A stretch of DNA of 64,000 nt from Acidimicrobiia bacterium (GCA_044867425.1 JBIOUX010000167.1:20365-84364); one strand, 5' to 3'. Shown: positions 12,052 to 30,319, numbered from the stretch's first letter. Numbers and translations are program-made. Notes: a model not told the origin generated them from the letters alone.

Positions 12052-13295
12052 GGTGTGACGTCCTGGCCGTGGGCACGGAGCTGCTCCTCGGCCAGCTGGT
12101 CGACACCAACAGCGCCTGGATCGGCGAGCAGCTGGCGGCGGTGGGCATCGACAGCCACCTGCACGTCGTGGTGGGCGACAACCAGGACCGCGTGGTGGAG
12201 ACCATGGGCTGGCTCCTGGCCCAGAGCGACGCCCTTCTCGTGTGCGGTGGGCTCGGCCCCACGCCCGACGACCTGACCCGGGAGGCCATCGCTGAGGTGA
12301 TGGGGGTCGGGCTGGTGCGCCACGAGCACCTGGTCGACCACATCCGGGAGCTGTTCATGAGCCGGGGCCGTCCCATGTCGCCGTCCAACGAGCGCCAGGC
12401 CGACGTTCCCGAGGGGGGCCGGGCCATCGACAATCCCCTGGGCACCGCGCCGGGGCTGGCCTGTCCGGTGGACGGGAAGGTCATCTACGCCGTGCCCGGG
12501 GTGCCCTACGAGATGCAGGCCATGGTCACCGACGACGTCATCCCCGACCTGCTGGCCCGGGCCGGGGAGCGGGCCACCATCGTGTCCCGGTCCCTGCGGA
12601 CGTGGGGCTCGGCGGAGTCGACGCTGGCCGAGCGCATCGCCGGCCGGGTCGACGCCCAGACGAACCCCACCATCGCCTTCCTGGCCCGGGGCATCGAGGG
12701 GCTCTACGTCCGCATCACGGCCAAGGCCGCCAGCGAAGCCGAGGCCCGCAAGCTGATCGAGGCGGAGGAAGCGGAGCTGCGGGCCGTCCTGGGCGACCTG
12801 GTCTTCGGGGTTGACGAGGAGACCATGGAGGCCGTCGTGCTTGGCCTGCTCCGGGAACGGGGCTGGACCCTGGCCGTGGCCGAGTCCGTCACCGGCGGGC
12901 TGGTCAGCGCCCGCCTGGTCGACGCCCCCGGCGCCAGCGACACCTTCCGCGGCGGGCTGGTGACCTACGCCACCGACGTCAAGCGCCCGGTGCTGGGGGT
13001 GACCGCGGAGAAGGTGGTGAGCGGGGAGTGCGCCATCCAGATGGCCGAGGGGATCCGCCGCGTGATGGGCGCCGACGTCGGCCTGGGCGTGACCGGCGTG
13101 GCCGGGCCCACCGAGCAGGACGGGGAGCCGGTGGGCACGGTGTGGTTCGGGGTGGCGCTTCCCGGCATGGCGCCCGAGGCCGTCCGGGGCCGGTTGCCCG
13201 GCGACCGGGAGCGGGTCCGGCAGTTCTCCACCATCTCGCTGCTCAATCTGCTGCGCCTCCGGCTCCTGGCCCGGGAGGGCAGCGGACTCCTCTGA
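12048..13295 (+). CDS. cinA: Competence/damage-inducible protein CinA (molybdopterin-binding + NMN deamidase domains)
   Basis: VGTELLLG..DTN, GGLGPTPDDLTRE, AVAESVTGG, TGVAGP. Confidence 0.93.
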   Translation: MRCDVLAVGTELLLGQLVDTNSAWIGEQLAAVGIDSHLHVVVGDNQDRVVETMGWLLAQSDALLVCGGLGPTPDDLTREAIAEVMGVGLVRHEHLVDHIRELFMSRGRPMSPSNERQADVPEGGRAIDNPLGTAPGLACPVDGKVIYAVPGVPYEMQAMVTDDVIPDLLARAGERATIVSRSLRTWGSAESTLAERIAGRVDAQTNPTIAFLARGIEGLYVRITAKAASEAEARKLIEAEEAELRAVLGDLVFGVDEETMEAVVLGLLRERGWTLAVAESVTGGLVSARLVDAPGASDTFRGGLVTYATDVKRPVLGVTAEKVVSGECAIQMAEGIRRVMGADVGLGVTGVAGPTEQDGEPVGTVWFGVALPGMAPEAVRGRLPGDRERVRQFSTISLLNLLRLRLLAREGSGLL

Positions 13296-13352
13296 TGGCT
13301 CTTCGCCTGGCGGCTCATCGCGATGCGGCCGGGGACCCCAGCCCCGGCCGCC
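13295..13352 (+). repeat. 58-bp junction repeat R58, copy 1
   Basis: ATGGCTCTTCGCCTGGCGGCTCATCGC...GCGGCCGGGGACCCCAGCCCCGGCCGCC; near-identical at 25602 and 29751. Confidence 0.9.
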
Positions 13353-13374
13353 CGGTCCAGCGGCCGCACCGGCT

Positions 13375-14016
13375 GTGACCAGGCGGCCCGGCCGGCCGGC
13401 CTACCGGCCCGGGGCGCCCAGCCGGGCGCGCTCCGCCTCAGAGCGGAGGGGGCCGCCGCCCGAGGTGGGCCGGGCCTTCGTGGCCGTCCGGCCGCCCGAC
13501 GCGGTCCTGGAGGCGATCGAGGCGACGCTCGCCCCCGCCCGGAAGGCGATGGTCGGGCCCCGCTGGGCGGGCCGGGACCAGTGGCACGTGACCCTGCAGT
13601 TCCTCGGCCCGGTGGCCACCCTGGCGCCGGTGGTCGAGGGGTTGGGAGCGGCCGTGGCCAGCCTTGCACCCTTCAGGTTCCAGCTGGGTGGATCGGGCGC
13701 CTTCCCCAACCCGCGGCGGGCCCGGGTCGTCTGGATCGGATCCGAGGAAGGCGCGGGCCCGATGGCCGGCCTGGCCGGCGCCGTGACTGGTGTGCTGGCC
13801 CCGCTGGGCTATGAGGCCGAGACCCGTCCCTTCCGCTCCCACCTCACCGTGGCCCGCCTGCGGGACCCGGGCGACGTCACGCCCGTCCTGGCCACCCTGG
13901 GGGACGGCGTCGTCGGGGAGGCGTGGACCGTCGAGGAGATCGTGCTCTACCAGAGCCGCCTGTCGCCGTCGGGCTCGCAGTACAGCGTGCTGGCCCGGTT
14001 CCCCCTCGGCATCTGA
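13375..14016 (+). CDS. thpR: RNA 2',3'-cyclic phosphodiesterase (2H family); true start may be GTG near 13465
   Basis: Two HxT motifs (WHVTLQFLG, SHLTVAR), RAFVAV N-terminus. Confidence 0.85.
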   Translation: MTRRPGRPAYRPGAPSRARSASERRGPPPEVGRAFVAVRPPDAVLEAIEATLAPARKAMVGPRWAGRDQWHVTLQFLGPVATLAPVVEGLGAAVASLAPFRFQLGGSGAFPNPRRARVVWIGSEEGAGPMAGLAGAVTGVLAPLGYEAETRPFRSHLTVARLRDPGDVTPVLATLGDGVVGEAWTVEEIVLYQSRLSPSGSQYSVLARFPLGI

Positions 14017-14087
14017 ACGGGCACCGGAGCAGTTGCCGTCCCGACAGCTGGTGCTTACCGTTTGCCTCGAGGGAGAGGGGGTGGCGG

Positions 14088-15170
14088 ATGGGCGACATGC
14101 GGCTCACTCGTCGTCAGGTGCTGGGGGCGGGAGCGGCGGCGCCGCTCTCCTTGATGCTGGCCCGGATGGGACTGGACGGGGCCGTGGCGCGGGCGTCAGC
14201 GGCCAGCGCCGCCAATCCCGCCGACCTGAGTCTGGTCGAGCTGCTGCCCCGGCTTGAACGCAGGGAGCTCTCGGCCCGGGAGCTGGTGGAGGCCTGCATC
14301 GCCCGGGTTGAGCGTCTCGACCCCACCATCAAGGCCTTCGAGCGACCGACCTTCGATCTGGCCCGGGCCGGAGCGGCGGCGGCCGATGAGGCGCGCGCCG
14401 CCGGCCGGCCGGTGGGGCCACTGGCGGGCGTGCCCATCGGCCTGAAGGACACGTACTACACCAAGGGCATCCCCACCACGGCCAGCTCCCGGGTGCTGGA
14501 GGATTTCGTCCCCGAGTTCGACGCCACGGTGTGGGCCCGGCTGCAGCAGGCGGGCATGGTGCTGCTCGGCAAGCTGAGCAGCACGGAGTTCGCCTACGGC
14601 ACCAACAGCCCGCCGACGGTGAACCCCTGGGACACCGACCTGAGTCCGGGCGGCAGCTCGGGCGGGTCGGGGGCGGCGCTGGCGGCCCGGATGCTGCCCG
14701 CCGCCCTGGGCGGGGACACGGGCGCCTCCATCCGGGTCCCGGCGGCCTGCTGCGGGGTTTCGGGAGTCAAGCCGACCTACGGCCGATGCTCCCGCCACGG
14801 GGGGATCGTCCTCGCCTGGTCGTTGGACACCGTCGGGCCCATGACCCGGCGGATGGCCGACTCGGCCGTGCTGCTCTCGATCATGGCCGGCGCCGACCCG
14901 GCCGATCCGACCGCCCTGACCGCCCCCGTGCCTGCGTATCCGACTGTGGCGCCGCCCGACCTGGCCGGCGTCCGGGTCGGCATCCCCGACCGGTTCTTCT
15001 GGGAGGACGTCGACGCCGACATCGCCCGGGTCTGCCACGAGGGGGTGGCCCGGCTGGTGGAGATGGGCGCCGAGGTGGTCGATTTCCCGGTGCCGGCGTC
15101 GACCGACGCCGTCCTCGGCCGGGGGCCACAGCCCTACGGAGCGGCCACGCTCTATGACGGTGGAGGCTGA
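14088..15170 (+). CDS. Tat-exported amidase-signature enzyme, N-terminal part of a split gene
   Basis: LTRRQVL twin-arginine signal; GLKD, PGGSSGGSGAA, GGDTGASIRVPA catalytic motifs; stops before the C-terminal region. Confidence 0.8.
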   Translation: MGDMRLTRRQVLGAGAAAPLSLMLARMGLDGAVARASAASAANPADLSLVELLPRLERRELSARELVEACIARVERLDPTIKAFERPTFDLARAGAAAADEARAAGRPVGPLAGVPIGLKDTYYTKGIPTTASSRVLEDFVPEFDATVWARLQQAGMVLLGKLSSTEFAYGTNSPPTVNPWDTDLSPGGSSGGSGAALAARMLPAALGGDTGASIRVPAACCGVSGVKPTYGRCSRHGGIVLAWSLDTVGPMTRRMADSAVLLSIMAGADPADPTALTAPVPAYPTVAPPDLAGVRVGIPDRFFWEDVDADIARVCHEGVARLVEMGAEVVDFPVPASTDAVLGRGPQPYGAATLYDGGG

Positions 15171-15172
15171 GC

Positions 15173-15655
15173 GTGTACGAGACCGTCGTGGTGGCCGAGG
15201 CGACCAGCTACCACCGCCGCCTGGCCGAGGAGCGGGGCCACCTCTATTCCCCCGAGGTGCTGGCGAACATCAAGTTCGGGGAGACGGTCTCGGCCCCGGA
15301 CTACATCGACGGTCAGCGGTTGCGCTCGACGTGGACGAGGGAGTGCACCGAGGCGTTCGCCGCCCACCGGCTCGATGTGGTGGCCAACCCGGTGGTGCCG
15401 GCTCCGTCCACACGCCAGACGCCGTCGCAGAGCTTCATCTTCGGGCCCTCCTTCAACCTCACCAAGCCCTGGAACCTGAACGGGTTCCCTGCCCTGTCCG
15501 TACCGGTGGGACTCGACGGCCGGGGCCTCCCCGTCGGGCTACAGCTCGCGGCCCTGCCGCTCGAGGAGGCCCGGCTCCTGTCGATCGCCATCGCCCTCGA
15601 CGAGGAGGTCGGCTTCTTCAACCAGAAGCCCCCGATCCTGGAGGGAGTCGAATGA
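15173..15655 (+). CDS. Amidase C-terminal part (different frame from 14088..15170)
   Basis: NLNGFPALSVPVG..GLPVGLQL..EEARLLSIA; GGAGG 6 nt upstream of GTG. Confidence 0.75.
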   Translation: MYETVVVAEATSYHRRLAEERGHLYSPEVLANIKFGETVSAPDYIDGQRLRSTWTRECTEAFAAHRLDVVANPVVPAPSTRQTPSQSFIFGPSFNLTKPWNLNGFPALSVPVGLDGRGLPVGLQLAALPLEEARLLSIAIALDEEVGFFNQKPPILEGVE

Positions 15656-15858
15656 GTCCGCAGACTCCGGCCCAGCCTGCGTCGCCGGGATCGTCGTCGG
15701 GGCCGGGGGACCGGCCCGGCATCCCCCTCGAGACCGAGCCGTTCGTGTTCTTCCATCCCCTCGTCGCCGGGCACGCGACGCCCGGGCCGGTGCAGCCGGC
15801 GCCGGGCCTTCCCCTGCTGGAAGAGGAGCCTTCGGCCTGGCCTGAGCTTCCCGGCTGA
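15652..15858 (+). CDS. Possible small Pro-rich protein (68 aa)
   Basis: ATGA overlap with the amidase stop; no family recognised. Confidence 0.3.
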   Translation: MSPQTPAQPASPGSSSGPGDRPGIPLETEPFVFFHPLVAGHATPGPVQPAPGLPLLEEEPSAWPELPG

Positions 15859-15941
15859 GACGGCCCGGCTGAGGACGGCCGTCGCGGGCGCCGGCGGCCG
15901 AGGGCGGATCCCGGAGGGTTGAAACGCGGCATTCCTTGTGC

Positions 15942-15955
15942 CGAACAGCTGTTCG
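15942..15955. promoter_or_regulatory. LexA (SOS) box upstream of recA
   Basis: Perfect palindrome CGAACAGCTGTTCG matching Gram-positive GAAC-N4-GTTC, ~120 bp before recA start. Confidence 0.88.
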
Positions 15956-16072
15956 TTCTAGGATTTCTTCCAACGGTGGAATTCCACGGGTGTAAATTGT
16001 CACACCCCGTCGGTACGCTGCCCCGGACGAGCTTCCCCCGCTGAATGATCGCCAAGTCCAGGAGGATGCGCA

Positions 16073-18184
16073 GTGGAGCGTGACAAGGCCCTCGAGATGG
16101 CTCTGGGTCAGATCGAGAAGCAGTTCGGCAAAGGTTCGATCATGAGGATGGGCGAGAACGCCCACATGCGGGTGGAGACGATCTCGACGGGAGCCCTCTC
16201 ACTCGATGTGGCCCTCGGGGTGGGAGGGCTCCCGCGGGGCCGGATCGTGGAGATCTACGGTCCGGAGTCCTCGGGCAAGTCCACGCTGGCCATGCACGTG
16301 GTGGCCGAGGCGCAGCGCAACGGCGGGGCCTGCGCCTACATCGACGCCGAGCACGCCATGGACCCGGTCTACGCCAAGGCCATCGGCGTCGACATCGACG
16401 AGCTGCTCATCTCCCAGCCCGACACCGGGGAGCAGGCCCTCGAGATCGCCGACATGCTCATCCGCTCCGGCAGCCTCGACGTGATCGTCATCGACTCGGT
16501 GGCGGCCCTCGTACCCCGGGCCGAGATCGAGGGCGAGATGGGCGACACCCACGTCGGCCTCCAGGCCCGGCTGATGAGCCAGGCGCTGCGGAAGCTGACC
16601 GCCAACCTCAACAAGTCCGACACCATCGCCATCTTCATCAACCAGCTCCGGGAAAAGATCGGGGTCATGTTTGGATGCATGTCATACGGCACCAGAGTGA
16701 CGCTGGCCGATGGCACCCAGGAGAAGATCGGCAAGATCGTCAACCAGAAGCTCGCGGTCGAGGTGCTCTCCTACGACCGTGTTCTCGACGCGGTCGTACC
16801 CAAGAAGGTCGTGAACTGGTTCGACAACGGCCGGACGGATCGGTTCCTCAAGTTCACCGTGGCGAAGCCGGGCGGAAACGGCCGGGCCCAGTTCGCATGT
16901 ACGCCCAACCATCAGGTCCGCACTCCTGGAGGCTGGCGTGAAGCTGCGGAACTGTCCGTTGGTGACCGGGTACTCCAGGCCGTGCCGCACTACCTCTCGG
17001 GTTTTCAATGGGACGTGCTGCTCGGCGGTCTCATGGGTGACGGTGCCCTGTCCCCGACGCGCAGCGGTCACGGCGCCCGCTACCGGTTCGGACACGGCGC
17101 CAGGCAGGTTGAGTACGGGGACTGGAAGGCCTCCCTCTTCGCCAATGTCGGCGTGTCCCGGAGCACCAACAGCAACGGTGCGACCTTTTACGACCTGCGT
17201 CCCCTACCGGAGTTGGCCGGTCTGAGGGACGCCGTCTATGTCGGGAAGAAGAAGGTGTTCAGCGAGGACTATCTCAAGCTGCTCACACCGCTCTCGCTTG
17301 CTATCTGGTACATGGACGATGGTTGCTTCTCGCTGCGGGCGAAGGGTTTGCAGGAGCGGACACGGGAGGGAAGTGGACGGTCCGAGATCTGCATCGAGGC
17401 CATGCATCCGGCGACGAGGTCAAGCCTCGTCGCGCACCTTGGCGACACCTGGGATCTTCATCCCACGCTGATCTCCCGCCGAGACAAGGCCGTGCTCGTC
17501 TTCCCGAAGGATGAGACGGCGAAGCTCCATGCTCTCATCGCACCCTTCGTGCATCCGTCGATGGAATACAAGCTCCTTCCGCGCTATCGAGGGCGGTTCA
17601 ACGTCACTCCGACCTTTGCTCGAATGCGGTGCGAACTTGTGCCAATGCCGATCACGGCTGCCGGCCGGAAGCCGCCGACTCGGAGCATGCACCGTTTCGA
17701 CATCGAGGTGGAGGGGTCGCACAACTACTTCGTTGACGGAGTGATGGTGCACAACTCACCGGAGACGACGCCTGGCGGCCGGGCGCTCAAGTTCTACTCG
17801 TCGGTCCGGCTCGACATCCGCCGTATCGAGAGCATCAAGGACGGCATGGAGGTCGTCGGAAACAAGACCCGTGTGAAGGTCGTCAAGAACAAGGTAAGTC
17901 CTCCTTTCAAAAGTTGTGAGATGGACATCATGTACGGCAAGGGGATCAGCCGAGAGGGGTCGGTCCTGGACCTTGGCGTCGACCTCGGCATCCTGAAGAA
18001 GTCGGGCGCCTGGTACACCTACGAGGGCGAGCAGCTGGGGCAGGGACGGGAGAAGGCCAAGGAGTTCCTGGCCGAGAGCCCCGAGCTCATGGTCGACATC
18101 ACCGAGAAGATCCTGCGGAAAGCGGGTATTGGCGCAGTCGACGAAGAAGTAGCTGAGGAGGCTACTGAGGTGGCCGAGGCATAG
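16073..18184 (+). CDS. recA: RecA precursor containing one intein
   Basis: [39 protein letters not shown]|intein|[20 protein letters not shown]. Confidence 0.97.
16676..17755 (+). mobile_element. RecA intein with LAGLIDADG homing endonuclease (360 aa), M. leprae-type insertion site
   Basis: Starts CMSYGTRV, ends VMVHN followed by Ser; LLGGLMGDG and AIWYMDDG blocks; less GC3-biased codons. Confidence 0.93.
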
Positions 18185-18187
18185 ACC

Positions 18188-18228
18188 TGGGCGGCCCCGG
18201 GGATCCCACCCGCCCCCGGGGCCGCCCA
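18188..18228 (+). terminator. Hairpin after recA
   Basis: 15-bp stem TGGGCGGCCCCGGGG / CCCCGGGGCCGCCCA, 11-nt loop, followed by TT. Confidence 0.65.
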
Positions 18229-18534
18229 TTCACACTCCGCGGGGACTCTCCAACCACGGGCACCAGGGAACCGGGTCGGCCGGCGTCGTGGAACGGTGGT
18301 TTGCACGTTTTTCTTCCGTGACGCGTGGAAAAGACTGTTAAGGCCCGGTAAATGCTGGTCCCCGCGGTCAACGAGTGCGTGTTACCATTCGGTAACTCTC
18401 CTAGTATTGATGTGGCTCGGAGGGCCCTCGAAGGTTGACGGAGAGGGGTTGACGGGTGACGGACGGAGAGTAAGGTTTGGTCGAAGAGCTGGGCGGAAGG
18501 CCCTGCTCTGCTCCCCATAGGAAGGGCTCGGCCC

Positions 18535-18864
18535 ATGGATGTCCTGAAGGTGTCCTCCAGGTCCAACCCCAATTCGGTGGCTGGTGCACTGGCGGGGGTA
18601 GTCCGTCAGATGGGCAGTGTGGAGGTACAGGTGATCGGGGCCGGCGCCCTGAACCAGGCGATCAAAGCCATTGCCATCGCCCGGGGATATGTGGCGCCGT
18701 CGGGAATCGATTTGGTGTGCATCCCGACCTTCGCTGACGTTGAGATCGCAGGCGAGGGTCGCACCGCCATCCGCCTCTCGGTGGAGAACCGCAGCCGGGT
18801 TCCCGTCCAGGTCCAGTCGCCGGGGGCAACGGTCCCCGTCGACATGTCCCGCTTGTCAGTCTGA
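18535..18864 (+). CDS. spoVS: Stage V sporulation protein S family (Alba-like fold)
   Basis: MDVLKVSSRSNPNSVAGALAG..IGAGALNQAIKAIAIARG..PTFADVEI. Confidence 0.88.
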   Translation: MDVLKVSSRSNPNSVAGALAGVVRQMGSVEVQVIGAGALNQAIKAIAIARGYVAPSGIDLVCIPTFADVEIAGEGRTAIRLSVENRSRVPVQVQSPGATVPVDMSRLSV

Positions 18865-18948
18865 GCCCGCCGGCCCCCGGGCCGGCCGAGGTTCGCGGCG
18901 ACGCGCCCTCCGGGGCGCGTCTGCGCGTCCGGAGGCAAGCACCCGCCG

Positions 18949-20319: not shown

Positions 20320-21272
20320 CCGGGCCGCGAACCCACCTGGCGCTGGTCGGGCCCACCGCCACGGGGAAATCGGCGCTGGCGATGGCGGCGGCCGCCGAGC
20401 TGGGCGACGTGGAGATCGTCACCGTCGACTCCATGCAGGTCTACCGGGGCATGGACATCGGCACGGCCAAGCCGACGGCGGCTGAGCGGGCGGCCGTGCC
20501 CCACCACGTCCTCGACGTGGCCGACCCCATCGACCAGTTCTCCGTCGCCTGCTTCCAGCGGGCGGCCGCCCAGGCCATCGCCGGCATCGAGGCCCGGGGG
20601 CACCGCGCCCTGCTGGTGGGCGGGACTGGCCTGTACTACCAGGCGGTGGTGGACGGTCTCACGCCGCCGGGCCGGGACGCCGCGCTGGCCGAGACCCTCG
20701 AGGCCCGAGCCGAGGACGAGCTCTCGGAGATGTATGCCGAGCTGTCCCGGCTCGACCCGGTGGCCGCCGGCCGCATCGAGCCCGGCAACCGGCGCCGGGT
20801 GGTGCGGGCCCTGGAGGTCACCCTGGCGACCGGCCGGCCCTTCTCGTCCTTCGGCCCGGGGATGTTCGTCCCGCCGGCCGGGGAGGCCGCACCGACCCCC
20901 GGGGGGCGTGGTCTCTCCGTGCGGAGCGTGGGTCTGTGGCTGCCCCGGGCCGTCACCGCCGCTCGCATCACCGAGCGCGTGGTGGCCATGGCCCGCCAGG
21001 GACTGGTGGACGAGGTCCGGCGCCTCGCCGCCGCCCCCGCCGGGCTCTCGCGGACCGCCCGCCAGGCCATCGGCTACAAGGAGATCCTCGACCACCTGGA
21101 GGGGAGGACGACGCTGGAGGCGGCGCTGTCCAAGGCGGCGGACCGCACCCGGGCCCTGGCCCGGCGCCAGCGCATGTGGTTCCGGCGCGACCCCCGCATC
21201 CGGTGGCTGGGGACGGCCGAGAATCCGCTCGCCGTCCTCCCCGCCCTTCTGGCAACGTGGACCCGGTCATGA
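20316..21272 (+). CDS. miaA: tRNA dimethylallyltransferase MiaA
   Basis: GPTATGKS, DSMQVYRGMDIGTAKP, VGGTGLY, QAIGYKE, ARRQRMWFR; TTG start overlaps miaB stop. Confidence 0.93.
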   Translation: MTGPRTHLALVGPTATGKSALAMAAAAELGDVEIVTVDSMQVYRGMDIGTAKPTAAERAAVPHHVLDVADPIDQFSVACFQRAAAQAIAGIEARGHRALLVGGTGLYYQAVVDGLTPPGRDAALAETLEARAEDELSEMYAELSRLDPVAAGRIEPGNRRRVVRALEVTLATGRPFSSFGPGMFVPPAGEAAPTPGGRGLSVRSVGLWLPRAVTAARITERVVAMARQGLVDEVRRLAAAPAGLSRTARQAIGYKEILDHLEGRTTLEAALSKAADRTRALARRQRMWFRRDPRIRWLGTAENPLAVLPALLATWTRS

Positions 21273-22207: not shown

Positions 22208-23502
22208 CCCCGCCCCAGGGACGCCAGCGCCGCCGGCTCACGGCCACCGAAGTCGACCTCGGGGTCGTCCGCCAGCGCGCCCTGCTGGTGGGCGTGGACG
22301 GCGACTCCATCGAAGAGGCGGAAGTCTCCCTGGACGAGCTCGCCCTGCTTACCGACACGGCTGGAGCCGACCCGGTGGAGCGGGCGGCGCAGCGGCGCGA
22401 GACCCCCGATCCCGCCACCTACATCGGCAAGGGCAAGGCGGCCGAGCTGGCCGACCTGGCCGAGGTCCTGGACATCGACGTGGTCGTCTTCGACGTGGAT
22501 CTCTCGCCCGCCCAGCAGCGCAACCTGGAGAAGCTCTTCGAACGGGATGTCGTCGACCGCGAGGCCGTGATCCTCGACATCTTCGCCCAGCACGCCCACA
22601 GCCGGGCCGGCATGCTCCAGGTCGAGCTGGCCCAGCTGCGCTACCGGCTCCCCCGGCTGCGGGGCCGGGGCGTGCAGATGAGCCGCCAGGAGGGCGGCAT
22701 CGGCGCCAAGCGGGGCCCCGGCGAGACGAAGCTGGAGGTCGACCGGCGCCGCATCCTGTCCCGCATCGCCAAGCTGGAGCGGGAGCTGGCCGAGGTGGCC
22801 AAGAACCGCACCACCCAGCGCAAGGCCCGTCGCAAGGCCGAGCACCCCCAGGTGGCGCTGGTGGGCTACACCAACGCCGGCAAGTCGACGCTCCTCAACC
22901 ACCTCACCGGCGCCGGGGTGCTGGTCGAGGACCGGCTCTTCTCCACGCTCGACTCCACCGTCCGCCGCCTGACCCTCCCCGGCGGGGAGACCGTGCTCGT
23001 CTCCGACACGGTGGGGTTCGTGCGCAAGTTGCCCCATCAACTGGTGGAGTCGTTCCGCTCCACGCTGGAGGAGGTGCGCGACGCCGACATCGTCCTCCAC
23101 GTGGTGGATGCCTCCGTGGCCGATCCCGGGCGCCAGATCCGGGCGGTGCGGGCCGTCCTGGCCGAGATCGATGCCGGTGACATCCCCGAGCTCATGGTCA
23201 TCAACAAGATCGACGTGGCCGATCCCGAGGCCGTCGCCGATCTGGTGGACGACAACGGAGCGGTGGCCATCTCGGCCGTCTCCGGCGAGGGCACCGACAA
23301 GCTCCTCGAGACCCTGGGCGCCCGCCTGCGGGCCCTGAACGCGGTGGTGGAGCTGACCGTGCCCTACGACCGGGGTGATGTGATCGCCGCCCTGCACCGG
23401 GAGGGCGAGGTCCTCGTCGAGGTCCACGACGAGTCGGGCAGCCGCATCCGGGCCCGCCTTCCCCGCCAGGGGCTGGAGCGTTTCGCGCCATACATGGCCT
23501 AG
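22204..23502 (+). CDS. hflX: GTPase HflX
   Basis: YIGKGK, ILDIFAQHA, GPGETKLEVDRR, VGYTNAGKST, LFSTLD, DTVGFV, NKID. Confidence 0.95.
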   Translation: MTPPQGRQRRRLTATEVDLGVVRQRALLVGVDGDSIEEAEVSLDELALLTDTAGADPVERAAQRRETPDPATYIGKGKAAELADLAEVLDIDVVVFDVDLSPAQQRNLEKLFERDVVDREAVILDIFAQHAHSRAGMLQVELAQLRYRLPRLRGRGVQMSRQEGGIGAKRGPGETKLEVDRRRILSRIAKLERELAEVAKNRTTQRKARRKAEHPQVALVGYTNAGKSTLLNHLTGAGVLVEDRLFSTLDSTVRRLTLPGGETVLVSDTVGFVRKLPHQLVESFRSTLEEVRDADIVLHVVDASVADPGRQIRAVRAVLAEIDAGDIPELMVINKIDVADPEAVADLVDDNGAVAISAVSGEGTDKLLETLGARLRALNAVVELTVPYDRGDVIAALHREGEVLVEVHDESGSRIRARLPRQGLERFAPYMA

Positions 23503-23515
23503 GCTTTTCAGTTCC

Positions 23516-24721
23516 ATGTTTGCTGCCGATTCCTCGCGCGGCTTCGTGCCGCCTCCCTATCCCTACGCCCGCCTCGACGACCTGCGCCGCCAGGCGGCCG
23601 CCGTCGAGGGCGGGATCGTCGACCTATCGGTGGGCACGCCCTGCGATCCGGTCCCGCCGGCGGTGGCCGCCGCCCTGGCCGACGCCGGCCCCCGCTGGGC
23701 CGGATACCCCTCGGCGGTGGGCCTGCCCCCGCTGCGGGAGGCGGCGGCGGGCTGGATCGAGCGCCGCTTCGGTGTCACCCTCGACCCCGCCCAGGTGGTG
23801 GCCTGCACCGGCACCAAGGAGCTGGTGGCCTCGCTGCCCCACGTGCTGGCCCTGCGGGACCGGTCGCGGGACACGGTGCTCTACCCGGCGGTCTCCTACC
23901 CGACCTACGAGATGGGGGCCATCCTGGCCGGCTTGCGGGCCGTGCCCGTCCCCCTCACCAAAGACTGGCACCTCGACCTCACGGCCGTGGCCGAGGAAGA
24001 CGCCGCCCGAGCCCTGCTGCTGTGGGTCAACGAGCCCGGCAACCCCACCGGCTCGGCCGCCAAGACCGCCGACCTGGCCGCCACGGTCGATTGGGCCCGG
24101 GCCCGAGGCATCATCGTGGCCAGCGACGAGTGCTACGTGGAGTTCACCTACAACGCCTTCGGCCGGCCCACGACCGGAGCCACCGCGCTGTCCGCCGGAG
24201 AGGACGGAGTGCTGGTGGTCCACTCCCTGTCCAAGCGCTCCAACATGGCCGGCTACCGCTGCGGCTTCCTGGCCGGCGACGGCGAACTCGTCGCCTACAT
24301 CGGCCAGGTCCGCACCCACGCCGGGTGCATGGTGCCCGGCCCGGTGCAGGCCGCCGCCACCGTGGCCTGGGCCGATGACGACCACGTGGAGCTCCAACAG
24401 CTCATCTACGGGGAGCGGCGGGCCTACGCCCGGTCCCGCCTGCGCCAGGCCGGCCTGGACGAAGCCGGCGGTCCCGCCACCTTCTACCTGTGGGCCGGCT
24501 CCAAGAACGATGAGGACGGGTGGACCATGGCCGCCCGCCTGGCCGCCACCGGCACCCTCGTCTCCCCCGGCGACCTCTACGGTCCCGCCGGCGCACCCCA
24601 CATCCGTATCGCCCTCGTCCATCCCCTGGACCGGCTGCAGCTGGCCTTCGACCGCCTGGCCGGCGAGGTCAAGCGCCGCGCCGGCGTGCGGGGCGTTCCG
24701 TCGAAGAGAGCCGCGCCGTGA
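23516..24721 (+). CDS. dapC: N-succinyldiaminopimelate aminotransferase (class I/II PLP)
   Basis: DLSVGTP, YPTYEMGA, NEPGNPTG, ASDECY, SLSKRSNMAGYR; dap operon context. Confidence 0.85.
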   Translation: MFAADSSRGFVPPPYPYARLDDLRRQAAAVEGGIVDLSVGTPCDPVPPAVAAALADAGPRWAGYPSAVGLPPLREAAAGWIERRFGVTLDPAQVVACTGTKELVASLPHVLALRDRSRDTVLYPAVSYPTYEMGAILAGLRAVPVPLTKDWHLDLTAVAEEDAARALLLWVNEPGNPTGSAAKTADLAATVDWARARGIIVASDECYVEFTYNAFGRPTTGATALSAGEDGVLVVHSLSKRSNMAGYRCGFLAGDGELVAYIGQVRTHAGCMVPGPVQAAATVAWADDDHVELQQLIYGERRAYARSRLRQAGLDEAGGPATFYLWAGSKNDEDGWTMAARLAATGTLVSPGDLYGPAGAPHIRIALVHPLDRLQLAFDRLAGEVKRRAGVRGVPSKRAAP

Positions 24722-25599
24722 GCCCCGGGGTTCGGGGTGTCCCCGAAGGACACGGGGTTCGGGGTGTCCCCGAAGGACACGATGAGTTGGCCAAGCTGAT
24801 CACCGCCGCCTGGGAGGCCAAGGACGACCCGGCCGGGCTCGCCCCCGAGGTCCCCGGCCTGGTGGCCGACGCCGTCGACCTGCTCGACTCCGGTCAGGTC
24901 CGGGTGGCCGAGGTGGTCGACGGCCAGGTCGTGGTCCACGAGTGGCTGAAGCTCGCCATCCTCCTCTGCTTCCGCACCCGGGGCCTGGAGACCATCGAAC
25001 TCGGGCCGTTCGAGTACTGCGACCGCATCCCGCTCAAGCGCGACTACGCCGCCGCCCGGGTGCGGGTGGTCCCCGGGGCCTCCGCCCGCTGGGGCGCCTA
25101 CCTCGCCCCCGGGGTCACCCTCATGCCGTCCTACGTCAACATCGGCGCCCGCGTCGGCGAGGGCACCCTGGTGGACACCTGGGCCACGGTGGGCTCCTGC
25201 GCCCAGATCGGCTCCGGTGTCCACCTCTCGGGGGGCGTGGGTATCGGCGGGGTCCTGGAACCGCCCCAGGCCGCCCCGGTGGTCATCGAGGACGACGTCT
25301 TCGTCGGCTCCCGCTCCATCGTGGTGGACGGAGCCCGGATCCGCCGGGGGGCCAAGCTGGGTGCCGGTGTCGTCCTCACCTCCTCCGTGCCGGTGATCGA
25401 CGCCCAGACGGGCGACGAGCTGGCCCGGGGTGAGATCCCCGAGCGGGCGGTGGCCGTCCCCGCCACCCGGGCCCGCGCCTTCCCCGGGGGCGAGTTCGGC
25501 CTGGCCTGCGTCCTGGTGCTGCGGACCCTGGCCGTCGGTGAGGAGCACGACAAGCTGGCCCTGAACGCCGTCCTCCGGGAGCACGGCCTCGCTCAATGA
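24718..25599 (+). CDS. dapD: Tetrahydrodipicolinate N-succinyltransferase (E. coli-type); start uncertain
   Basis: LMPSYVNIGA..DTWATVGSCAQIG..HLSGGVGIGGVLEP; GTGA overlap with dapC. Confidence 0.92.
   Translation: MSPGVRGVPEGHGVRGVPEGHDELAKLITAAWEAKDDPAGLAPEVPGLVADAVDLLDSGQVRVAEVVDGQVVVHEWLKLAILLCFRTRGLETIELGPFEYCDRIPLKRDYAAARVRVVPGASARWGAYLAPGVTLMPSYVNIGARVGEGTLVDTWATVGSCAQIGSGVHLSGGVGIGGVLEPPQAAPVVIEDDVFVGSRSIVVDGARIRRGAKLGAGVVLTSSVPVIDAQTGDELARGEIPERAVAVPATRARAFPGGEFGLACVLVLRTLAVGEEHDKLALNAVLREHGLAQ
24727..24780 (+). repeat. Two tandem 27-nt R27 units at the dapC/dapD junction
   Basis: (GGGGTTCGGGGTGTCCCCGAAGGACAC)x2, encoding (GVRGVPEGH)x2 if dapD starts at 24718. Confidence 0.95.
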
Positions 25600-25601
25600 C
25601 T

Positions 25602-25659
25602 ATGGCTCTTCGCCTGGCGGCTCATCGCTGTGCGGCTGGGGACCCCAGCCCCAGCCGCC
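25602..25659 (+). repeat. 58-bp junction repeat R58, copy 2
   Basis: ATGGCTCTTCGCCTGGCGGCTCATCGCTGTGCGGCTGGGGACCCCAGCCCCAGCCGCC. Confidence 0.9.
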
Positions 25660-25695
25660 GCGCCCGGGCTGCGCCAGTACCGGGGAGGCTCAGAG

Positions 25696-26766
25696 GTGGG
25701 TGACCTGTCAATCCCCGCCGGCGACCTGCTCGGCCTGACCGCCGCCCTGTGCGCCGTGCCCTCGGTGAGCCGTCACGAGGAGGACCTGGCCGCGGCGGTG
25801 GAGGTTCGCCTGGCCGCCTGCGCCCTCCACGTGGAACGGGTGGGGAACACCGTCGTGGCCCGCACCCAGGCCGGACGGGATCGCCGGGTGGTGCTGGCCG
25901 GGCATCTGGACACCGTGCCGCCCAACGGCAACGAGGTGCCGAAAGTGGAAGGCGACACCCTCTACGGCCTGGGCGCCGCCGACATGAAGGGCGGACTGGC
26001 GGTGCTCCTGCGCCTGGCCGAGGAGGTGGCGCCGGCCGCCCGCTTCGACGTGACCCTCGTCTTCTACGAGAGCGAGGAGATCGCCGACGAGTACAACGGG
26101 CTGCGCCACCTCTTCGAGGTCCGCCCCGACCTGGTGGCGGGCGACTTCGCCGTCCTCCTCGAACCCACCGACAACTGGCTCGAGGCCGGCTGCCAGGGTT
26201 CGATCCGTCTCGAGGCCACCTTCACCGGGGAGCGGGCTCACACCGCCCGGCCCTGGCGGGGGCGCAACGCCGTTCACCGGGCGGCACCCGTCCTCAGCCG
26301 CCTGGCCGGCCACCAGCCCCCCGAGATCGAGGTGGACGGGCTGTGCTTCCGCCAGGCCCTCCAGGTCGTCGACATCCACGGCGGGGTGGCGGGCAACGTG
26401 GTGCCCGACCGCTGCACCATCGCCGTCAACCGCCGCTACGCCCCCAGCCTCAGCCTGGAGGAGGTGGAGGCCGAGGTGCGGGCCCTGCTCGCCGGCGCCG
26501 ACGAGGTGGCGCTGACCTCAGTGTCGCCCGCCGCCCACCCCAACCTGTCCGACCCGCTGGTGGCCGAGTTCGCCGCCAGCCTCGGGGTCCCGGTGCGGCC
26601 CAAGCTGGGCTGGACCGACGTGGCCCGGTTCAGCGCCCACGGCGTGCCGGCGGTGAACTTCGGGCCCGGCGATCCCGAGGTGTCCCACACCGCCGGCGAA
26701 CACGTCAGCCGATCGTCACTCGAGGCCTGCCATCAGGCGCTGGCCCGGTTCCTTTCGCCCACCTGA
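25696..26766 (+). CDS. dapE: Succinyl-diaminopimelate desuccinylase (M20)
   Basis: LAGHLDTVP, GLGAADMKGG, YESEE, EPT, GWTDVARF, NFGPGD; GGGGAGG SD before GTG 25696. Confidence 0.9.
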   Translation: MGDLSIPAGDLLGLTAALCAVPSVSRHEEDLAAAVEVRLAACALHVERVGNTVVARTQAGRDRRVVLAGHLDTVPPNGNEVPKVEGDTLYGLGAADMKGGLAVLLRLAEEVAPAARFDVTLVFYESEEIADEYNGLRHLFEVRPDLVAGDFAVLLEPTDNWLEAGCQGSIRLEATFTGERAHTARPWRGRNAVHRAAPVLSRLAGHQPPEIEVDGLCFRQALQVVDIHGGVAGNVVPDRCTIAVNRRYAPSLSLEEVEAEVRALLAGADEVALTSVSPAAHPNLSDPLVAEFAASLGVPVRPKLGWTDVARFSAHGVPAVNFGPGDPEVSHTAGEHVSRSSLEACHQALARFLSPT

Positions 26767-28997
26767 GGAGCACCGACACGGACGACGCCACCCGCGCCCG
26801 CCTCGAGGAGCTCGAAGCCGAACGCCGCTTCGTAGCCGGGCTCTACGAGCTGCTCGACCAGCATCGGGCCCGGACCTCCCAGCACCTGTCGTCGGTCTAC
26901 GGGTCCTCGGCGGCGGGCACCCCCCAGTGGCGCAGCGAGCGCGATGCCCTGGCGGTGTCCTTCGAGAAACGTCTGGCGGGGATGACCATCGGCGACCTGC
27001 CGCTGTGCTTCGGGCGGCTCGACATGGTCGCCGGCGGTCGCTTCCACGTCGGCCGCCTGGCCCTCTCCGACGAGCACCACGAGCCCCTGCTGGTCGACTG
27101 GCGGGCGCCGGCGGCCCAGCCCTTCTACCAGGCCACGGCCGGCGACCCCCAGGGCGTGGTCCGCCGCCGGCACCTCCTGACCCGGGGCCGGGAGGTGATC
27201 AGCCTCGACGACGAGGTCTTCGATCTCGACTCCCTCTCCGAGGAGGAACGGGCCGGCCTCCAGGGCGACGCCGCCCTGCTGGCCGCCCTGGGCCGGGAGC
27301 GCACCGGCCGGATGGGCGACATCGTGGCCACCATCCAGGCCGACCAGGACCGGATCATCCGCTCCGACCTGGGCGGCGCCCTGGTGGTGCAGGGCGGTCC
27401 GGGAACCGGGAAGACGGCCGTGGCGCTGCACCGGGCCGCCTATCTCCTGTACACCCACCGCCGCCAACTGGCCGGCAGCGGCGTCCTCATCGTCGGTCCC
27501 AACGGCGTGTTCCTGCGCTACATCGAGCAGGTGCTGCCCTCCCTGGGCGAGACCGGAGCCCTCCTGGTCACGCCCGGCGAGCTGTTCCCCGGCGTGACCG
27601 CCCGGCGAAGCGACCCACCGGCCGTGGCCCGGGTGAAGGGCGACCTGCGGATGGTCGACGTGCTGCGCAAGGCGGTGGCCGATCGCCAGCGCCTCCCCCG
27701 CCTGGACCTCACCGTCGACTTCGAGGGGCAGCGCCTGCGGCTCGACCGGCGGACGGCCCGGAGCATCCGGGCCGCGGCCCGGCGCAGCCGCCGGCCCCAC
27801 AACCGGGCCCGGGAGGTGGTGGAGCGCCTGGTCCTCGAGGCCCTGGCCGCCCAGCTGGAGGAGCCGGCGCGCCGGGGGGAGGTGCGCCGGACCCGGGCCT
27901 TCAAGGAGGTGATGGAGCGCCTCTGGCCCCTCCTCAGTCCCCAGGAGCTGCTCAACGACCTCTTCGGCTTCCCCGCCCTGCTGCGGTCGGCGGCTCCGGA
28001 TCTGAGCGCGGCGGAGCGGGAGGCGCTGGCCCGGCCCCGGCAGCGCAACGCCGCCGATGTCGATTGGTCGGTGGAGGACGTCGCCCTCCTGGACGAGGCG
28101 GCGGAGATCCTGGGTACGCCCGCCACCGGGCGACGCCGGCGGCGCCGCGGGGATGCCCAGGAGGCGTACGCCCGCAGGGTCCTGGCCGGGCTGGACCTCG
28201 GGTTCCCGGTCGACGCCGAGGCCATGGCCGCCCGCTACGCCGGGGAGAAGGGCCCCGAGCCGCTGTCGGAGCGGGCCCGGGCCGACCGGACGTGGGCCTT
28301 CGGCCACGTCATCGTGGACGAGGCCCAGGAGCTCTCCCCCATGGTGTGGCGGGTGCTGTTCCGGCGCTGCCCGTCGCGGTCGATGACCATCGTCGGTGAC
28401 CTGGCCCAGGCCGGGGTGGCCTGGCGGCCGTCGAGCTGGGCGGAGGTGCTCGACCGTCACGCCCGGGGCCGCTGGCGGGTCTCCGAGCTCACCGTCAACT
28501 ACCGGACCCCCCGGGAGATCATGGACGTGGCGGCCACGGTCCTGGCGGCCAGCGATCCGGGCGTGGAGCCGCCGGTGTCCATGCGCGACGGCGGCGAGGA
28601 GCCCTGGGCCCGGCAGCTGGACACGCCGCTCGACGGGCAGCTGGTCGACGTCGTGCGCCGGGAACTGGACGTCATCGGGACCGGCCGCCTGGCCGTCCTC
28701 ACGCCCGCGGCCCGGCGCGACGAGGTGGAGTCGGCGGTGCGGGGGGCGCTGCCCGAGGCGGTGGCCGGGGGCGTGCTCGACTCACCGGTGGCCGTGCTGG
28801 CCGTGAAGGAGGCCAAGGGCCTCGAGTTCGACTCGGTGGTGCTGGTGGAACCGGGCGAGATCGTGGACGAGTCCGAGCGGGGGCTGTCGGACCTCTACGT
28901 CGCCCTCACCCGGGCCACCCGCCGCCTCGGCGTCCTCCACTCCCAGCCGCTTCCCGAGGTGCTCGGTGGGCTCACCGGGAACGGCGGCGCTCAGTAG
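26763..28997 (+). CDS. HelD/HelR-family RNA-polymerase-associated SF1 helicase-like ATPase; start approximate
   Basis: DWRAPAA, DIVATIQADQD, QGGPGTGKTAVALHRAAYLLY, IVDEAQE, VGDLAQ, NYRTP, KGLEFD, YVALTRAT. Confidence 0.85.
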   Translation: MRSTDTDDATRARLEELEAERRFVAGLYELLDQHRARTSQHLSSVYGSSAAGTPQWRSERDALAVSFEKRLAGMTIGDLPLCFGRLDMVAGGRFHVGRLALSDEHHEPLLVDWRAPAAQPFYQATAGDPQGVVRRRHLLTRGREVISLDDEVFDLDSLSEEERAGLQGDAALLAALGRERTGRMGDIVATIQADQDRIIRSDLGGALVVQGGPGTGKTAVALHRAAYLLYTHRRQLAGSGVLIVGPNGVFLRYIEQVLPSLGETGALLVTPGELFPGVTARRSDPPAVARVKGDLRMVDVLRKAVADRQRLPRLDLTVDFEGQRLRLDRRTARSIRAAARRSRRPHNRAREVVERLVLEALAAQLEEPARRGEVRRTRAFKEVMERLWPLLSPQELLNDLFGFPALLRSAAPDLSAAEREALARPRQRNAADVDWSVEDVALLDEAAEILGTPATGRRRRRRGDAQEAYARRVLAGLDLGFPVDAEAMAARYAGEKGPEPLSERARADRTWAFGHVIVDEAQELSPMVWRVLFRRCPSRSMTIVGDLAQAGVAWRPSSWAEVLDRHARGRWRVSELTVNYRTPREIMDVAATVLAASDPGVEPPVSMRDGGEEPWARQLDTPLDGQLVDVVRRELDVIGTGRLAVLTPAARRDEVESAVRGALPEAVAGGVLDSPVAVLAVKEAKGLEFDSVVLVEPGEIVDESERGLSDLYVALTRATRRLGVLHSQPLPEVLGGLTGNGGAQ

Positions 28998-29617
28998 CGG
29001 CGGAACAGGCCGACCACCTTCCCGTAGATGGCGACCTCGTCGGGACGGAACACCATGTCGTCCATCGCCGGGTTGGCCGGACGGAGGACCACCTTGTCGC
29101 CCTTGCGGCTGAGGGTCTTGACCGTGGCCTCGTCCCCGGGGATGCCGGCCACCACGATGTCGCCCTTCTCGGCGGTGGGCTGCTGGCGGACGATGACGTG
29201 GTCGCCGTCGAAGATCCCCGCTTCGATCATCGACTCGCCCCGGACCCGCAGCATGAAGACGGGACCCTCGCCCACGAAGTCGGCCGGGAGAGGGTGGACC
29301 TCCTCCACGTTCTCGGCCGCCAGAACGCCGGTACCGGCGGCCACGTCGCCCACCAGGGGCACGTGGCGTACCGGCCGCCGGCCCAGGTTGGCGCCCGACG
29401 ACGGCTCGAAGTGGACCTGCAAGGCCCGGGGCTTGGTCGGATCCCGGACCAGGTACCCCTTGGCCACCAACGCCGACAGATGGGAGTGGACGGTGGAGGT
29501 CGACGAGAGCCCCACGGCGGCGCCGATCTCGCGGACGCTGGGGGGGTAGCCGCGCTTGCGGGCCTCGGCGTCGACGAACTCGAGGATCTGGCGTTGGCGG
29601 GGGGTCAGGTCCTGCAT
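28991..29617 (-). CDS. lexA: SOS repressor LexA
   Basis: LTPRQRQILEF, YPPSVREIG, VAAG cleavage site, GESM (Ser), ATVK (Lys); AAGGAGGG SD. Confidence 0.96.
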   Translation of the reverse strand: MQDLTPRQRQILEFVDAEARKRGYPPSVREIGAAVGLSSTSTVHSHLSALVAKGYLVRDPTKPRALQVHFEPSSGANLGRRPVRHVPLVGDVAAGTGVLAAENVEEVHPLPADFVGEGPVFMLRVRGESMIEAGIFDGDHVIVRQQPTAEKGDIVVAGIPGDEATVKTLSRKGDKVVLRPANPAMDDMVFRPDEVAIYGKVVGLFRRY

Positions 29618-29677
29618 GCATGCCCTCCTTGCGACGTGCGCCCGGCGCCGTTGCCAGGCTTGTGGCGGACGGTAACA

Positions 29678-29708
29678 CGAATGCACATTCGGAGCAAACA
29701 TGGGTTCT
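29678..29708. promoter_or_regulatory. Two LexA-box-like sites between lexA and nrdR
   Basis: CGAATGCACATTCG (29678-29691) and CAAACATGGGTTCT (29695-29708; reverse complement AGAAC-CCAT-GTTTG). Confidence 0.65.
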
Positions 29709-29750
29709 ATATCGTGCTTTGGAAGCTCCGCCGGTACTTTGGCTGCGATC

Positions 29751-29808
29751 ATGGCTCTTCGCCTGGCGGCTCATCGCGTTGCGGCCGGGGACCCCAGCCC
29801 CAGCCGCC
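29751..29808 (+). repeat. 58-bp junction repeat R58, copy 3
   Basis: ATGGCTCTTCGCCTGGCGGCTCATCGCGTTGCGGCCGGGGACCCCAGCCCCAGCCGCC. Confidence 0.9.
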
Positions 29809-29830
29809 AGTCCCTGCTACGCAGGTCCTG

Positions 29831-30319
29831 ATGCGATGTCCTTACTGTCACGGGGTGGAGGACAAGGTGGTCGACTCCCGCCTGGCGGAGGGCGGAGCCA
29901 CCATCCGCCGCCGGCGGGAGTGCCTGGTCTGCAGCCGGCGCTACACCACCTTCGAGCGGGCCGAGGAGGCCGTCCTGGTGGTGGTGAAGCGGTCGGGGCT
30001 GCGGGAGCCCTTCGACCGGGCCAAGGTGGCGAGCGGCATCCGGAGGGCGACCAAGAACCGGCCCATCGACGATGCCGCCATCGAGGCGCTGGCCGCGGCG
30101 GTGGAGGAGCAGGTGCGCCAGGCCGGCGGACCGGACGTCGGGACCGAGGCCATCGGGCGGGCCGTGCTCGACGGGCTCCGCACGCTCGACCCGGTGAGCT
30201 ACCTGCGGTTTGCCTCCGTCTACAAGGGCTTCGACGACGTGACCGACTTCGCCCGGGAGGTCGGCGAGCTCCAGAAGACCACGTCCCCCAAGTCCGGATC
30301 CGGCCGGTCCGGCGCCTAG
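29831..30319 (+). CDS. nrdR: Transcriptional repressor NrdR
   Basis: MRCPYC..DSR..IRRRRECLVCSRRYTTFE, ATP-cone, YLRFASVY. Confidence 0.96.
   Translation: MRCPYCHGVEDKVVDSRLAEGGATIRRRRECLVCSRRYTTFERAEEAVLVVVKRSGLREPFDRAKVASGIRRATKNRPIDDAAIEALAAAVEEQVRQAGGPDVGTEAIGRAVLDGLRTLDPVSYLRFASVYKGFDDVTDFAREVGELQKTTSPKSGSGRSGA

Follow-up and report, generated by a model that had tools for sequence, protein, structure and literature searches.

The closest described counterpart of the repeat analyzed here is the mycobacterial interspersed repetitive unit (MIRU), which, in the summary of Supply et al. (1997) given in PMC12548453, is a repeat of 40-100 bp that inserts at start codons and carries a coupled open reading frame (ORF). 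Our subject is R58, a 58-nt repeat found in three copies, each opening a mini-ORF, in a 64,000-nt stretch of DNA from an Acidimicrobiia bacterium (GCA_044867425.1 JBIOUX010000167.1:20365-84364; hereafter, the window). We consider it likely that R58 is the conserved part of a non-autonomous, MIRU-like insertion element of ~83-86 nt that is predicted to relay ribosomes to the downstream gene. Sister species differ in which sites carry the element, and its position coincides exactly with translation start sites.

Like MIRU, R58 is short, dispersed and present in many copies, and resides within transcription units at start codons; its internal small ORF overlaps a neighboring stop or start codon (52 of 76 sense copies and about 13 antisense equivalents), and tandem arrays of its core with a 91-nt unit exist in other Acidimicrobiia genera. 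Unlike MIRU, R58 is solitary in the genome that contains the window, where it forms no arrays of the variable-number tandem repeat type and reaches a higher copy number (more than 100); it possesses two strong, covarying hairpins, takes over leaderless starts, includes dedicated antisense subfamilies, and is modular, with an invariant 27-nt core and lineage-specific hairpin modules. Given that the host of R58 belongs to Acidimicrobiia and that of MIRU is Mycobacterium, the likeness is functional, and membership in MIRU by descent is not claimed.

Repetitive extragenic palindromic (REP) elements and REPINs are mobilized by RAYT (Y1/HUH) transposases and consist of palindromes tagged with GTAG/CGTC (PMC3733652). 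The first hairpin of R58, a 27-nt GC-rich imperfect palindrome with compensatory changes in a high-copy family, resembles these elements; moreover, one R58 subfamily starts with CGTC at the foot of the stem, and the pattern of mismatches suggests recognition of a single strand. R58 differs from REP/REPIN in that its copies do not flank a RAYT or Y1 gene, the local Y1_Tnp genes being those of IS200/IS605 (tnpA+tnpB) with unrelated hairpins, and in that it combines a non-palindromic conserved core, an ORF of defined phase and a seat at start codons rather than in extragenic 3' regions. The Rickettsia palindromic elements are a further system for comparison, alongside the co-transcribed repeats that resemble miniature inverted-repeat transposable elements. 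All of these are, like R58, small, non-autonomous and located in transcription units, and some have open frames that are tolerated in genes, as are a few R58 copies. They are, however, characterized by terminal inverted repeats and target duplications or by insertion within coding regions, whereas the replacement of a start codon combined with the rebuilding of a stop/start overlap, which defines R58, is the defining feature of none of them. The co-transcribed repeats in question are Correia/NEMIS, ERIC and RU-1/2/3 (PMC3184786, PMC2229807, PMC2759123). A synthetic parallel is the bicistronic-design (BCD) cassette, as cited in PMC12548453, in which a short leader cistron hands ribosomes to an overlapping start and expression becomes insensitive to local structure; BCD cassettes are engineered and contain a Shine-Dalgarno sequence inside the leader cistron, whereas the A-type R58 element has at most a weak AGG and would depend on the UGAUG or NUGA overlap.

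The assembly that contains the window (G000; 5.33 Mb, 227 contigs, 71.5% GC) harbors a large R58 family, in agreement with the original prediction of a dispersed element. The 27-nt core gave 117 matches with up to five mismatches, of which 62 are exact and 31 have one mismatch, and an nhmmer profile constructed from 133 distinct 58-mers gave 115 matches, including 94 full-length 58-mers. Comparison of filled and empty alleles puts the full element at 83-86 nt for the standard forms. The 58-mer consists of the core, three variable nucleotides and the 27-nt hairpin 1, which is built from six variable pairs plus GGGG, a 7-nt loop (NCCCCNN) and CCCC plus six nucleotides. Within the core, two direct GGCTC(T/A)TC repeats flank the palindrome GCCTGGC, an arrangement that makes the core a likely protein-binding site. 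Conservation reaches 8-9 nt upstream of the core, forming a 5' leader with the consensus (G)CTGTGCTC, in which C at -8 (95%), T at -5 (89%), G at -4 (91%) and Y at -2 (98%) are the most constant positions; position -6 is G, A, C or T in 54, 26, 21 and 10 copies, respectively, and usually opens an in-frame GTG or ATG. The second hairpin varies between subfamilies (CCTGC-YYC-GCAGG; CCTGC-TGGC-GCAGG; GGCGCCAC-TAGC-GTGGCGCC; GGCCGACG-CAAG-CGTCGGCC; CGTGC-TYC-GCACG), and the element ends in ...TCCTG followed by ATG or in ...GGTCCNR followed by TGA; the mini-ORF has 22-31 codons. Variant copies contain an additional in-frame hairpin, ~57 nt in size, 3' of the core, a foreign repeat nested in the hairpin-1 loop, or a duplicated core. 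A search of G000 for tandem arrays with Tandem Repeats Finder yielded only one partial duplication (45 nt x2). Because automated calling of hairpin-2 subfamilies left many copies unclassified, the types of junction with the neighboring genes were used as classes.

The recurrent ORF could, in principle, represent a duplicated functional small protein or a family of N-terminal tags (MALRLAAHR...). The nine N-terminal residues are conserved, and a few copies are fused in frame to the downstream gene (16 'long' frames in relatives and the D-type in G000). However, the core is conserved at synonymous positions as well (the 62 identical 27-mers), the remaining residues change freely between subfamilies and as the hairpin covaries, antisense copies use another frame, and remnants of 6-9 codons persist, so we find this explanation barely credible.

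The position relative to genes could be evaluated for 109 G000 copies, which fall into slightly overlapping classes: 76 in the sense orientation upstream of a co-directional gene, 29 in the antisense orientation and 5 within genes. The excess of sense over antisense copies is highly significant (binomial p=5e-6). In 52 of the 76 sense copies, the mini-ORF stop directly overlaps the downstream start (30 as NTGA and 22 as TGA-NTG), and in 12 more it is 4-13 nt from the start. With 543 kb of intergenic DNA available, a random insertion has a 0.45% chance of meeting one exact position and orientation, and about 1% of copies are expected to overlap in this way. Hence the strand bias and the excess of stop/start overlaps that the original prediction had proposed to look for are both present. 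Its broader claim, that the element is kept in operons by virtue of translational coupling, is supported with respect to strand and phase, and the distribution extends further than it foresaw, many copies residing at leaderless promoter-proximal starts instead of operon junctions.

At the 5' side, about 17-19 copies overlap the stop codon of the upstream gene, 13 of them with TGA at -5..-3 over the NTG at -6 and 4 with this TGA at -2. A TANNNT box precedes an in-frame NTG by 6-8 nt in 15 of the 31 copies that have no co-directional gene upstream, and across all copies the ends of such boxes pile up ~13-15 nt before the core, with a lesser cluster at ~10-11 nt (34 of 111 copies in all). The two junctions of a copy are correlated: a 5' NTGA goes with a 3' NTGA in 16 of 17 cases, and a promoter-side location goes with TGATG in 16 of 21 (Fisher p=2.6e-4). 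On the gene strand, 21 of the 29 antisense copies read ...GAGCCATGA, with a strongly coding ORF beginning at that ATG in ~13, and one antisense subfamily (hairpin 2 AAGCCGTGC..GCACGTCTTG) has its own antisense ORF of 28-29 codons that runs from the host's start codon. Five internally deleted remnants of 6-9 codons also end on or beside a start (nrdR in G001, C103, C159:3994, C112:12178 and C184:31711). The copies in relatives follow the same trend, albeit more weakly (50 sense vs 32 antisense). Since copies are related by descent, all these counts overstate the number of independent events.

These distributions bear on the possibility that R58 is a REP-like DNA hairpin that inserts regardless of genes, in which case the start position and the open frame would reflect survivorship and the mini-ORF would have no role. 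Stop codons are indeed rare in GC-rich sequence, some copies occupy neutral intergenic positions or run in frame inside genes, and the covarying hairpin, with 50 C.A to 2 G.U mismatches independent of orientation (see below), has the appearance of a structure maintained at the DNA level. Under this scenario, however, neutral DNA should dominate, whereas the convergent spacers (74 kb, 14% of intergenic bp) hold only 4 of the 109 copies and precise start positions hold about half, against ~1% expected. The matched 5' and 3' junction types, the existence of subfamilies with built-in TGATG or NTGA ends, the retention of frame and overlap in deletion remnants, and the lack of an associated RAYT or Y1 transposase (G357 carries 16 copies and no Y1_Tnp) all speak against it as well, and we regard it as unlikely. 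That copies are so much more frequent at start codons than in neutral DNA speaks for targeting or else for strong positive retention, and insertion is probably targeted rather than random.

Comparison of filled and empty sites across genomes, all of which are metagenome-assembled, is consistent with a ribosome-relaying insertion element. Of the 58 copies in relatives that could be mapped to G000 by their flanks, 37 (64%) correspond to sites that are empty in G000, two of these with a 29-nt remnant; ~11 sites are filled, and the remainder contain other repeats or decayed copies. Exact insertion at the start codon is apparent from the empty alleles at nrdR, dapD-dapE, L021, L035, L071 and other loci. 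The nrdR gene is leaderless in five genomes of four genera (G003, G005, G006, G009, G011), with TACCTT, TACCGT or TACGGT followed after 6-7 nt by ATG or GTG, whereas in G000, G002 and G004 the element lies between the -10 spacer and the nrdR ATG (empty allele TACCTTggcccgc joined to ATG; filled allele TACCTTggcgccATGCCC-ATGACTC...GGTCCTG joined to ATG). The filled alleles of G001, G002 and G004 retain the spacing between the -10 box and the first start, and what remains in G001 after an internal deletion is ATGACGGCTCGGCGCAGGTCCTGATG, whose 7-codon ORF also closes in TGATG. Given that filled alleles do not differ from empty ones in this spacing (8 vs 8 nt at L021, L035 and L071; 6-7 vs 6-7 nt at nrdR), the start codon of the element replaces that of the gene. 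At dapD-dapE, a bare ATGA overlap is present in G003, G004, G006 and G009, and the element occupies this site in G000, G001 and G002, the copy of G002 being canonical (filled allele GTGACC-ATGG...GGTCC-TTGACC).

This organization suggests how expression of the host gene could survive insertion. The first start codon of the element takes the place of the gene's start, either 6-8 nt after a leaderless -10 box or within the NTGA at the stop of the upstream gene, and a start codon is rebuilt at the 3' end of the element, overlapping the mini-ORF stop. Ribosomes would begin on the mini-ORF, in a leaderless mode or coupled from the upstream gene, melt both hairpins, stop at the UGA and start again on the AUG or GUG that overlaps it. 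The antisense-inserted subfamilies might achieve the same result with an open antisense frame that ends in ...GAGCC-ATGA. MIRU have been used for typing for 25 years, and both their movement and the relay of ribosomes by their ORF are still unsettled; R58 provides a richer natural data set, with more than 100 copies per genome, dozens of filled/empty/remnant triplets within one genus, and distinct subfamilies suited to leaderless starts, to 4-nt overlaps or to antisense insertion. It illustrates how a selfish element can settle on the start codon, the position at which a gene is most sensitive, by supplying its own start and rebuilding that of the host, and it offers concrete constructs for the study of termination-reinitiation and leaderless initiation in actinobacteria.

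Several observations weigh against R58 being such a start-codon-inserting relay. There is no nearby start in 12 of the 76 sense copies, and in relatives the stop is at or near a start in only 31 of 50; some copies separate convergent genes, follow a tRNA or lie in frame within coding regions. One such copy (L053:7090-7190) lies directly 3' of a tRNA gene (...GGTTCGAGTCCTGCCGGGCCCACA), which implies that start codons are not the target of every insertion. In the window, the cinA site is an exception, with the element at the stop codon and the start further on; the stop of the copy 1 mini-ORF is 87 nt 5' of the true thpR start, which leaves copy 1 uncoupled at its 3' end. The gene models themselves (4,925 genes, 89% coding) come from our own simple codon-usage caller and are crude. 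Although C at -8 is kept in 95% of the copies, empty sites show C at this position near chance frequency. No terminal inverted repeats were detected (the ends CTGTGCTCATGG... and ...GGTCCTGATG are not inverted repeats of each other), nor was a consistent target duplication, the variable junction positions of 12 operon-type copies agreeing in 3 of 12 and 7 of 12 cases, which is the chance level. The requirement for an IS200/IS605 or RAYT mobilizer was rejected because the Y1_Tnp genes of G000, G002 and G004 belong to ordinary IS200/IS605 elements with unrelated end hairpins and no R58 nearby, and Y1_Tnp is absent from three element-positive genomes (G357, G362 and G377). A resemblance to the terminal repeat of ISL3 (GGCTCTTCG) was likewise dismissed, given that the ISL3 copies of G000 lack such ends.

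The exact 5' boundary of the element is ambiguous between -9 and -3. At cinA and at dapD-dapE of G002, the hexamers at both junctions resemble the single hexamer of the empty site; where the flanks are unambiguous, the 8-nt leader is carried by the element, yet the -10-to-start spacing is unchanged at leaderless sites. A CNRTG target motif in empty sites was considered and discarded, with C at -2 of the start in ~5 of 12, the chance level.

Hairpin 1 of the window copies (GCGGCYGGGG-ACCCCAG-CCCCRGCCGC) had been reported to be perfect in copies 1 and 2 through a compensatory change, and this is the case (C-G and T-A, respectively, with a C.A mismatch in copy 3). The covariation extends to the entire family: 91.9% of the cells are paired, compared to 84.1 +/- 0.4 in shuffles (0/500), and double-sided changes number 120 versus 41 (0/500). 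At the pair adjoining GGGG, G000 has T-A in 36 copies, C-G in 28, C.A in 24 and T.G in none, and relatives have C.A in 34 and T.G in 1; overall, stem mismatches on the mini-ORF strand comprise 50 C.A-type and 2 G.U-type cells, and pairing is 95.5% on the opposite strand versus 91.9% on the mini-ORF strand. The predominance of C.A over G.U mismatches means that the stem is fully paired only on the opposite strand. Because the asymmetry is independent of the orientation of the copy to the gene, it appears to be a property of the element itself, acting as single-stranded DNA or as RNA from the other strand, and not that of an mRNA device; as copies are not independent events, the asymmetry is suggestive only. 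The energy of hairpin 1 is equal in sense and antisense (-19.7 kcal/mol), so that the asymmetry resides in the mismatch type alone and energy was abandoned as a criterion for the folding strand. Most likely, the hairpins serve the element at the DNA level or as opposite-strand RNA and are not mRNA attenuators.

The alternative to be weighed here is a host cis-regulatory leader, that is, an attenuator or an upstream-ORF switch (MALRLAAHR...) that co-regulates a regulon of ~100 genes; the original prediction had proposed an attenuator-like module in which GGCGGCT of the core pairs with the 3' arm of hairpin 1. Consistent with such a role, copies are located directly upstream of genes and combine an ORF with two stable hairpins, and the alternative pairing is possible in the main subfamily. 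However, the 86.7% of cells that are paired in the alternative helix are matched by 86.6% in shuffles (255/500), so this helix does not covary, and about a third of the sequences disrupt two of its seven pairs. No U-tract was found after either hairpin, and Rfam yielded no match in the window at gathering thresholds and none at E<=1 around copy 3. The copy number varies from 30 to 108 within the genus, sister species and other genera have working junctions at nrdR, dapE and cinA that lack the element, 29 copies are antisense, and the genes downstream of R58 are functionally unrelated. Furthermore, conservation is at the level of nucleotides and not of the peptide, which shifts wherever the hairpin covaries. 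Given that most sites (64%) are unshared between sister species, a regulon is argued against, and we consider a regulatory leader very improbable; taken together with the mismatch strand, these results support neither the alternative pairing nor the attenuator.

The three window copies were re-identified as exact matches to the core ATGGCTCTTCGCCTGGCGGCTCATCGC at 13295, 25602 and 29751, all on the + strand (shuffles expect 0), and their 58-mers differ only at positions 28-30, 36 and 52 (Table 1). Re-derivation gave the mini-ORF lengths of the original prediction, as well as the overlaps that it had described at the cinA and dapD stops, in the dapE ORF and at the nrdR start, with one correction. 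At cinA, the stop codon (TGA, 13293-13295) and the copy 1 ATG share an A (TGATG), but the downstream GTG at 13375, which the mini-ORF stop overlaps, is not the start of thpR. The Pfam LigT_PEase match begins at residue 40 of the ORF counted from 13375, and in all relatives thpR starts as ...GAGGTGGGCCGGGCCTTCGTGGCC, with the N-terminus GRAFVAV retained throughout; hence the true start is the GTG near 13465, and the stop of copy 1 overlaps no true downstream start, an eventuality for which the original prediction had allowed. The site is empty in G003, G004, G005, G006 and G009, where cinA ends in CT(C/G)TGA, and filled only in G000 and G002, with the element 3' of the stop codon. A call of thpR from 13375 adds a spurious, low-complexity N-terminus of 30 residues, an example of how gene callers misplace starts or call spurious small ORFs at R58 sites; the spacer between the copy 1 stop and the thpR GTG (13379-13464) contains a further GC hairpin, CTCCGC-CTCAGA-GCGGAG.

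Table 1. Location of R58 copies, adjacent features in the window, and IS200/IS605 elements of the same assembly
Feature	Location	Strand	Remarks
Copy 1 with mini-ORF	13287..13378	+	5' junction CTCCTCTG joined to ATGG, usual 3-nt linker missing; non-canonical 3' part, end CTGTGA
Copy 1 mini-ORF	13295-13378	+	27 aa; stop within GTGA 13375-13378
Copy 1 58-mer	13295..13352	+	Core 13295-13321, spacer 13322-13324, hairpin 1 13325-13351; perfect stem, variable pair C-G
thpR (LigT-like 2'-5' RNA ligase)	13465..14016	+	True start, GTG near 13465
Copy 2 with mini-ORF	25596..25703	+	35 aa; starts at ATG of dapD-terminal ATGA; core 25602-25628, hairpin 1 25632-25658, variable pair T-A; diverged 3' part with GGGGAGG 7 nt before dapE GTG 25696; stop TGA 25701-25703, 8 nt into dapE ORF
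-10-like box TACTTT, leaderless nrdR promoter	29735..29740	+	ATC-ATGGCTC (5' end of element) fills the place of the start codon
Copy 3, canonical 83-nt 'A-type' element	29748..29830	+	Core 29751-29777, hairpin 1 29781-29807 (C.A mismatch), hairpin 2 CCTGC-TAC-GCAGG 29813-29825, terminal TCCTG
Copy 3 mini-ORF	29751-29831	+	26 aa; stop TGA 29829-29831 overlaps nrdR ATG 29831 (TGATG)
nrdR	29831..30283	+	Start verified: Pfam Zn_ribbon_NrdR profile positions 1-42 align to residues 1-42
IS200/IS605 in G000 (tnpA, some with tnpB)	C34:9909-10259, C190:12274-12627, C151:24939-25292, C36:5305-5658, C150:66594-66952		Three with common left-end hairpin GACCGAAATCGAGCGGCAAGCCCACGGCTTCGGCCGTGGGTCAAGGCGAC; unrelated to R58

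The five genomes of the genus contain 108, 105, 60, 30 and 37 copies, respectively; the sister genus has 3 partial copies, and the other 115 of the 121 genomes of the order that were searched have none. Across the class, the exact core was found in 7 of 401 Acidimicrobiia genomes and 6 of 177 genera, other families included. In other genera the core is paired with different hairpins, sometimes in tandem arrays with a 91-nt period (G357, which is CBDCGU01, and G362). In these arrays, the leader CTGTGNTN is the linker from hairpin 2 of one unit to the core of the next, which accounts for the presence of related sequences (CTG...ATG) at both ends of the solo element. Contigs with a GC content of 61-64% that were assigned to Myxococcota or Acidobacteria contain the identical core as well, although binning errors are possible. 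A farther-reaching interpretation, tentative and in our view doubtful, is that R58 is an active start-codon-homing element in which the 27-nt core and the junction motif C-N-R-T-G(+/-A) would be recognized, subfamilies would be dedicated to leaderless starts, -4 overlaps and antisense insertion, and movement would be horizontal across Acidimicrobiia orders and possibly, given the identity of the core in the contigs labeled Myxococcota and Acidobacteria, across phyla; it would then exemplify an undescribed class of mobile 'translation relay' cassettes.

Core-only tandem arrays are present at L044:475-640, on a contig binned as Myxococcota, and at L023:2217-2290, with 33-nt units of CTGGCTCTTCGC, CTTGCGG or GCGAGCG, and CTCATCGCGTGATT, which equal 11 codons in frame. 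These contigs (61-64% GC) have no similarity to G000, and the arrays reflect either horizontal spread of the core module or mis-binning.

The spacer between the divergent lexA and nrdR genes contains, at ~29678-29692, the palindrome CGAATGCACATTCG, also seen at L001, L003 and L004 and conserved genus-wide, with the divergent gene starting as MQELTPRQRQILEFVD; it is probably a LexA (SOS) box. Two more GGGGTCCCC palindromes lie outside R58, at 37499-37507 and 45077-45085, and may be the 'R27' repeat to which the original prediction likened the core of R58, a link that is not established.

G000 additionally contains a second dispersed family, CTGGCGGCTTCGCCGCC-CCGCCTGGGGCCCCAACCCCAGGCTCCTCCG-GAGCGTGGGGCCCCTGCCCCACGCCC-GGCCGT (C178:10678-10770, C163:38350-38440, C93:20386-20470, C190:21980-22070 and ~20 more), with CTGGCGGCT in common with the R58 core and a pair of hairpins that are both in the GGGGnCCCCnnCCCC style. 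A third, small repeat (CCGCCGGAACCTCCGGTTCCGGTGGGGTGG) occurs at C24:38616(-), C109:5927(+) and C34:16419(-), as well as at C169:13022, C209:27142 and C211:9943; it is nested in the hairpin-1 loop of R58 and also adjoins hairpins of the second family, and its nested location suggests that GGGG/CCCC loops are insertion targets. Several families of repeats apparently insert at the same junctions: at the site of L070, the relative has R58 and G000 (C178) has the second family, and at C207:~36421 and C209:~22426, G000 has another short repeat (GCCCGGGGCCCGGGGTGTCCCCGA) where relatives carry R58.

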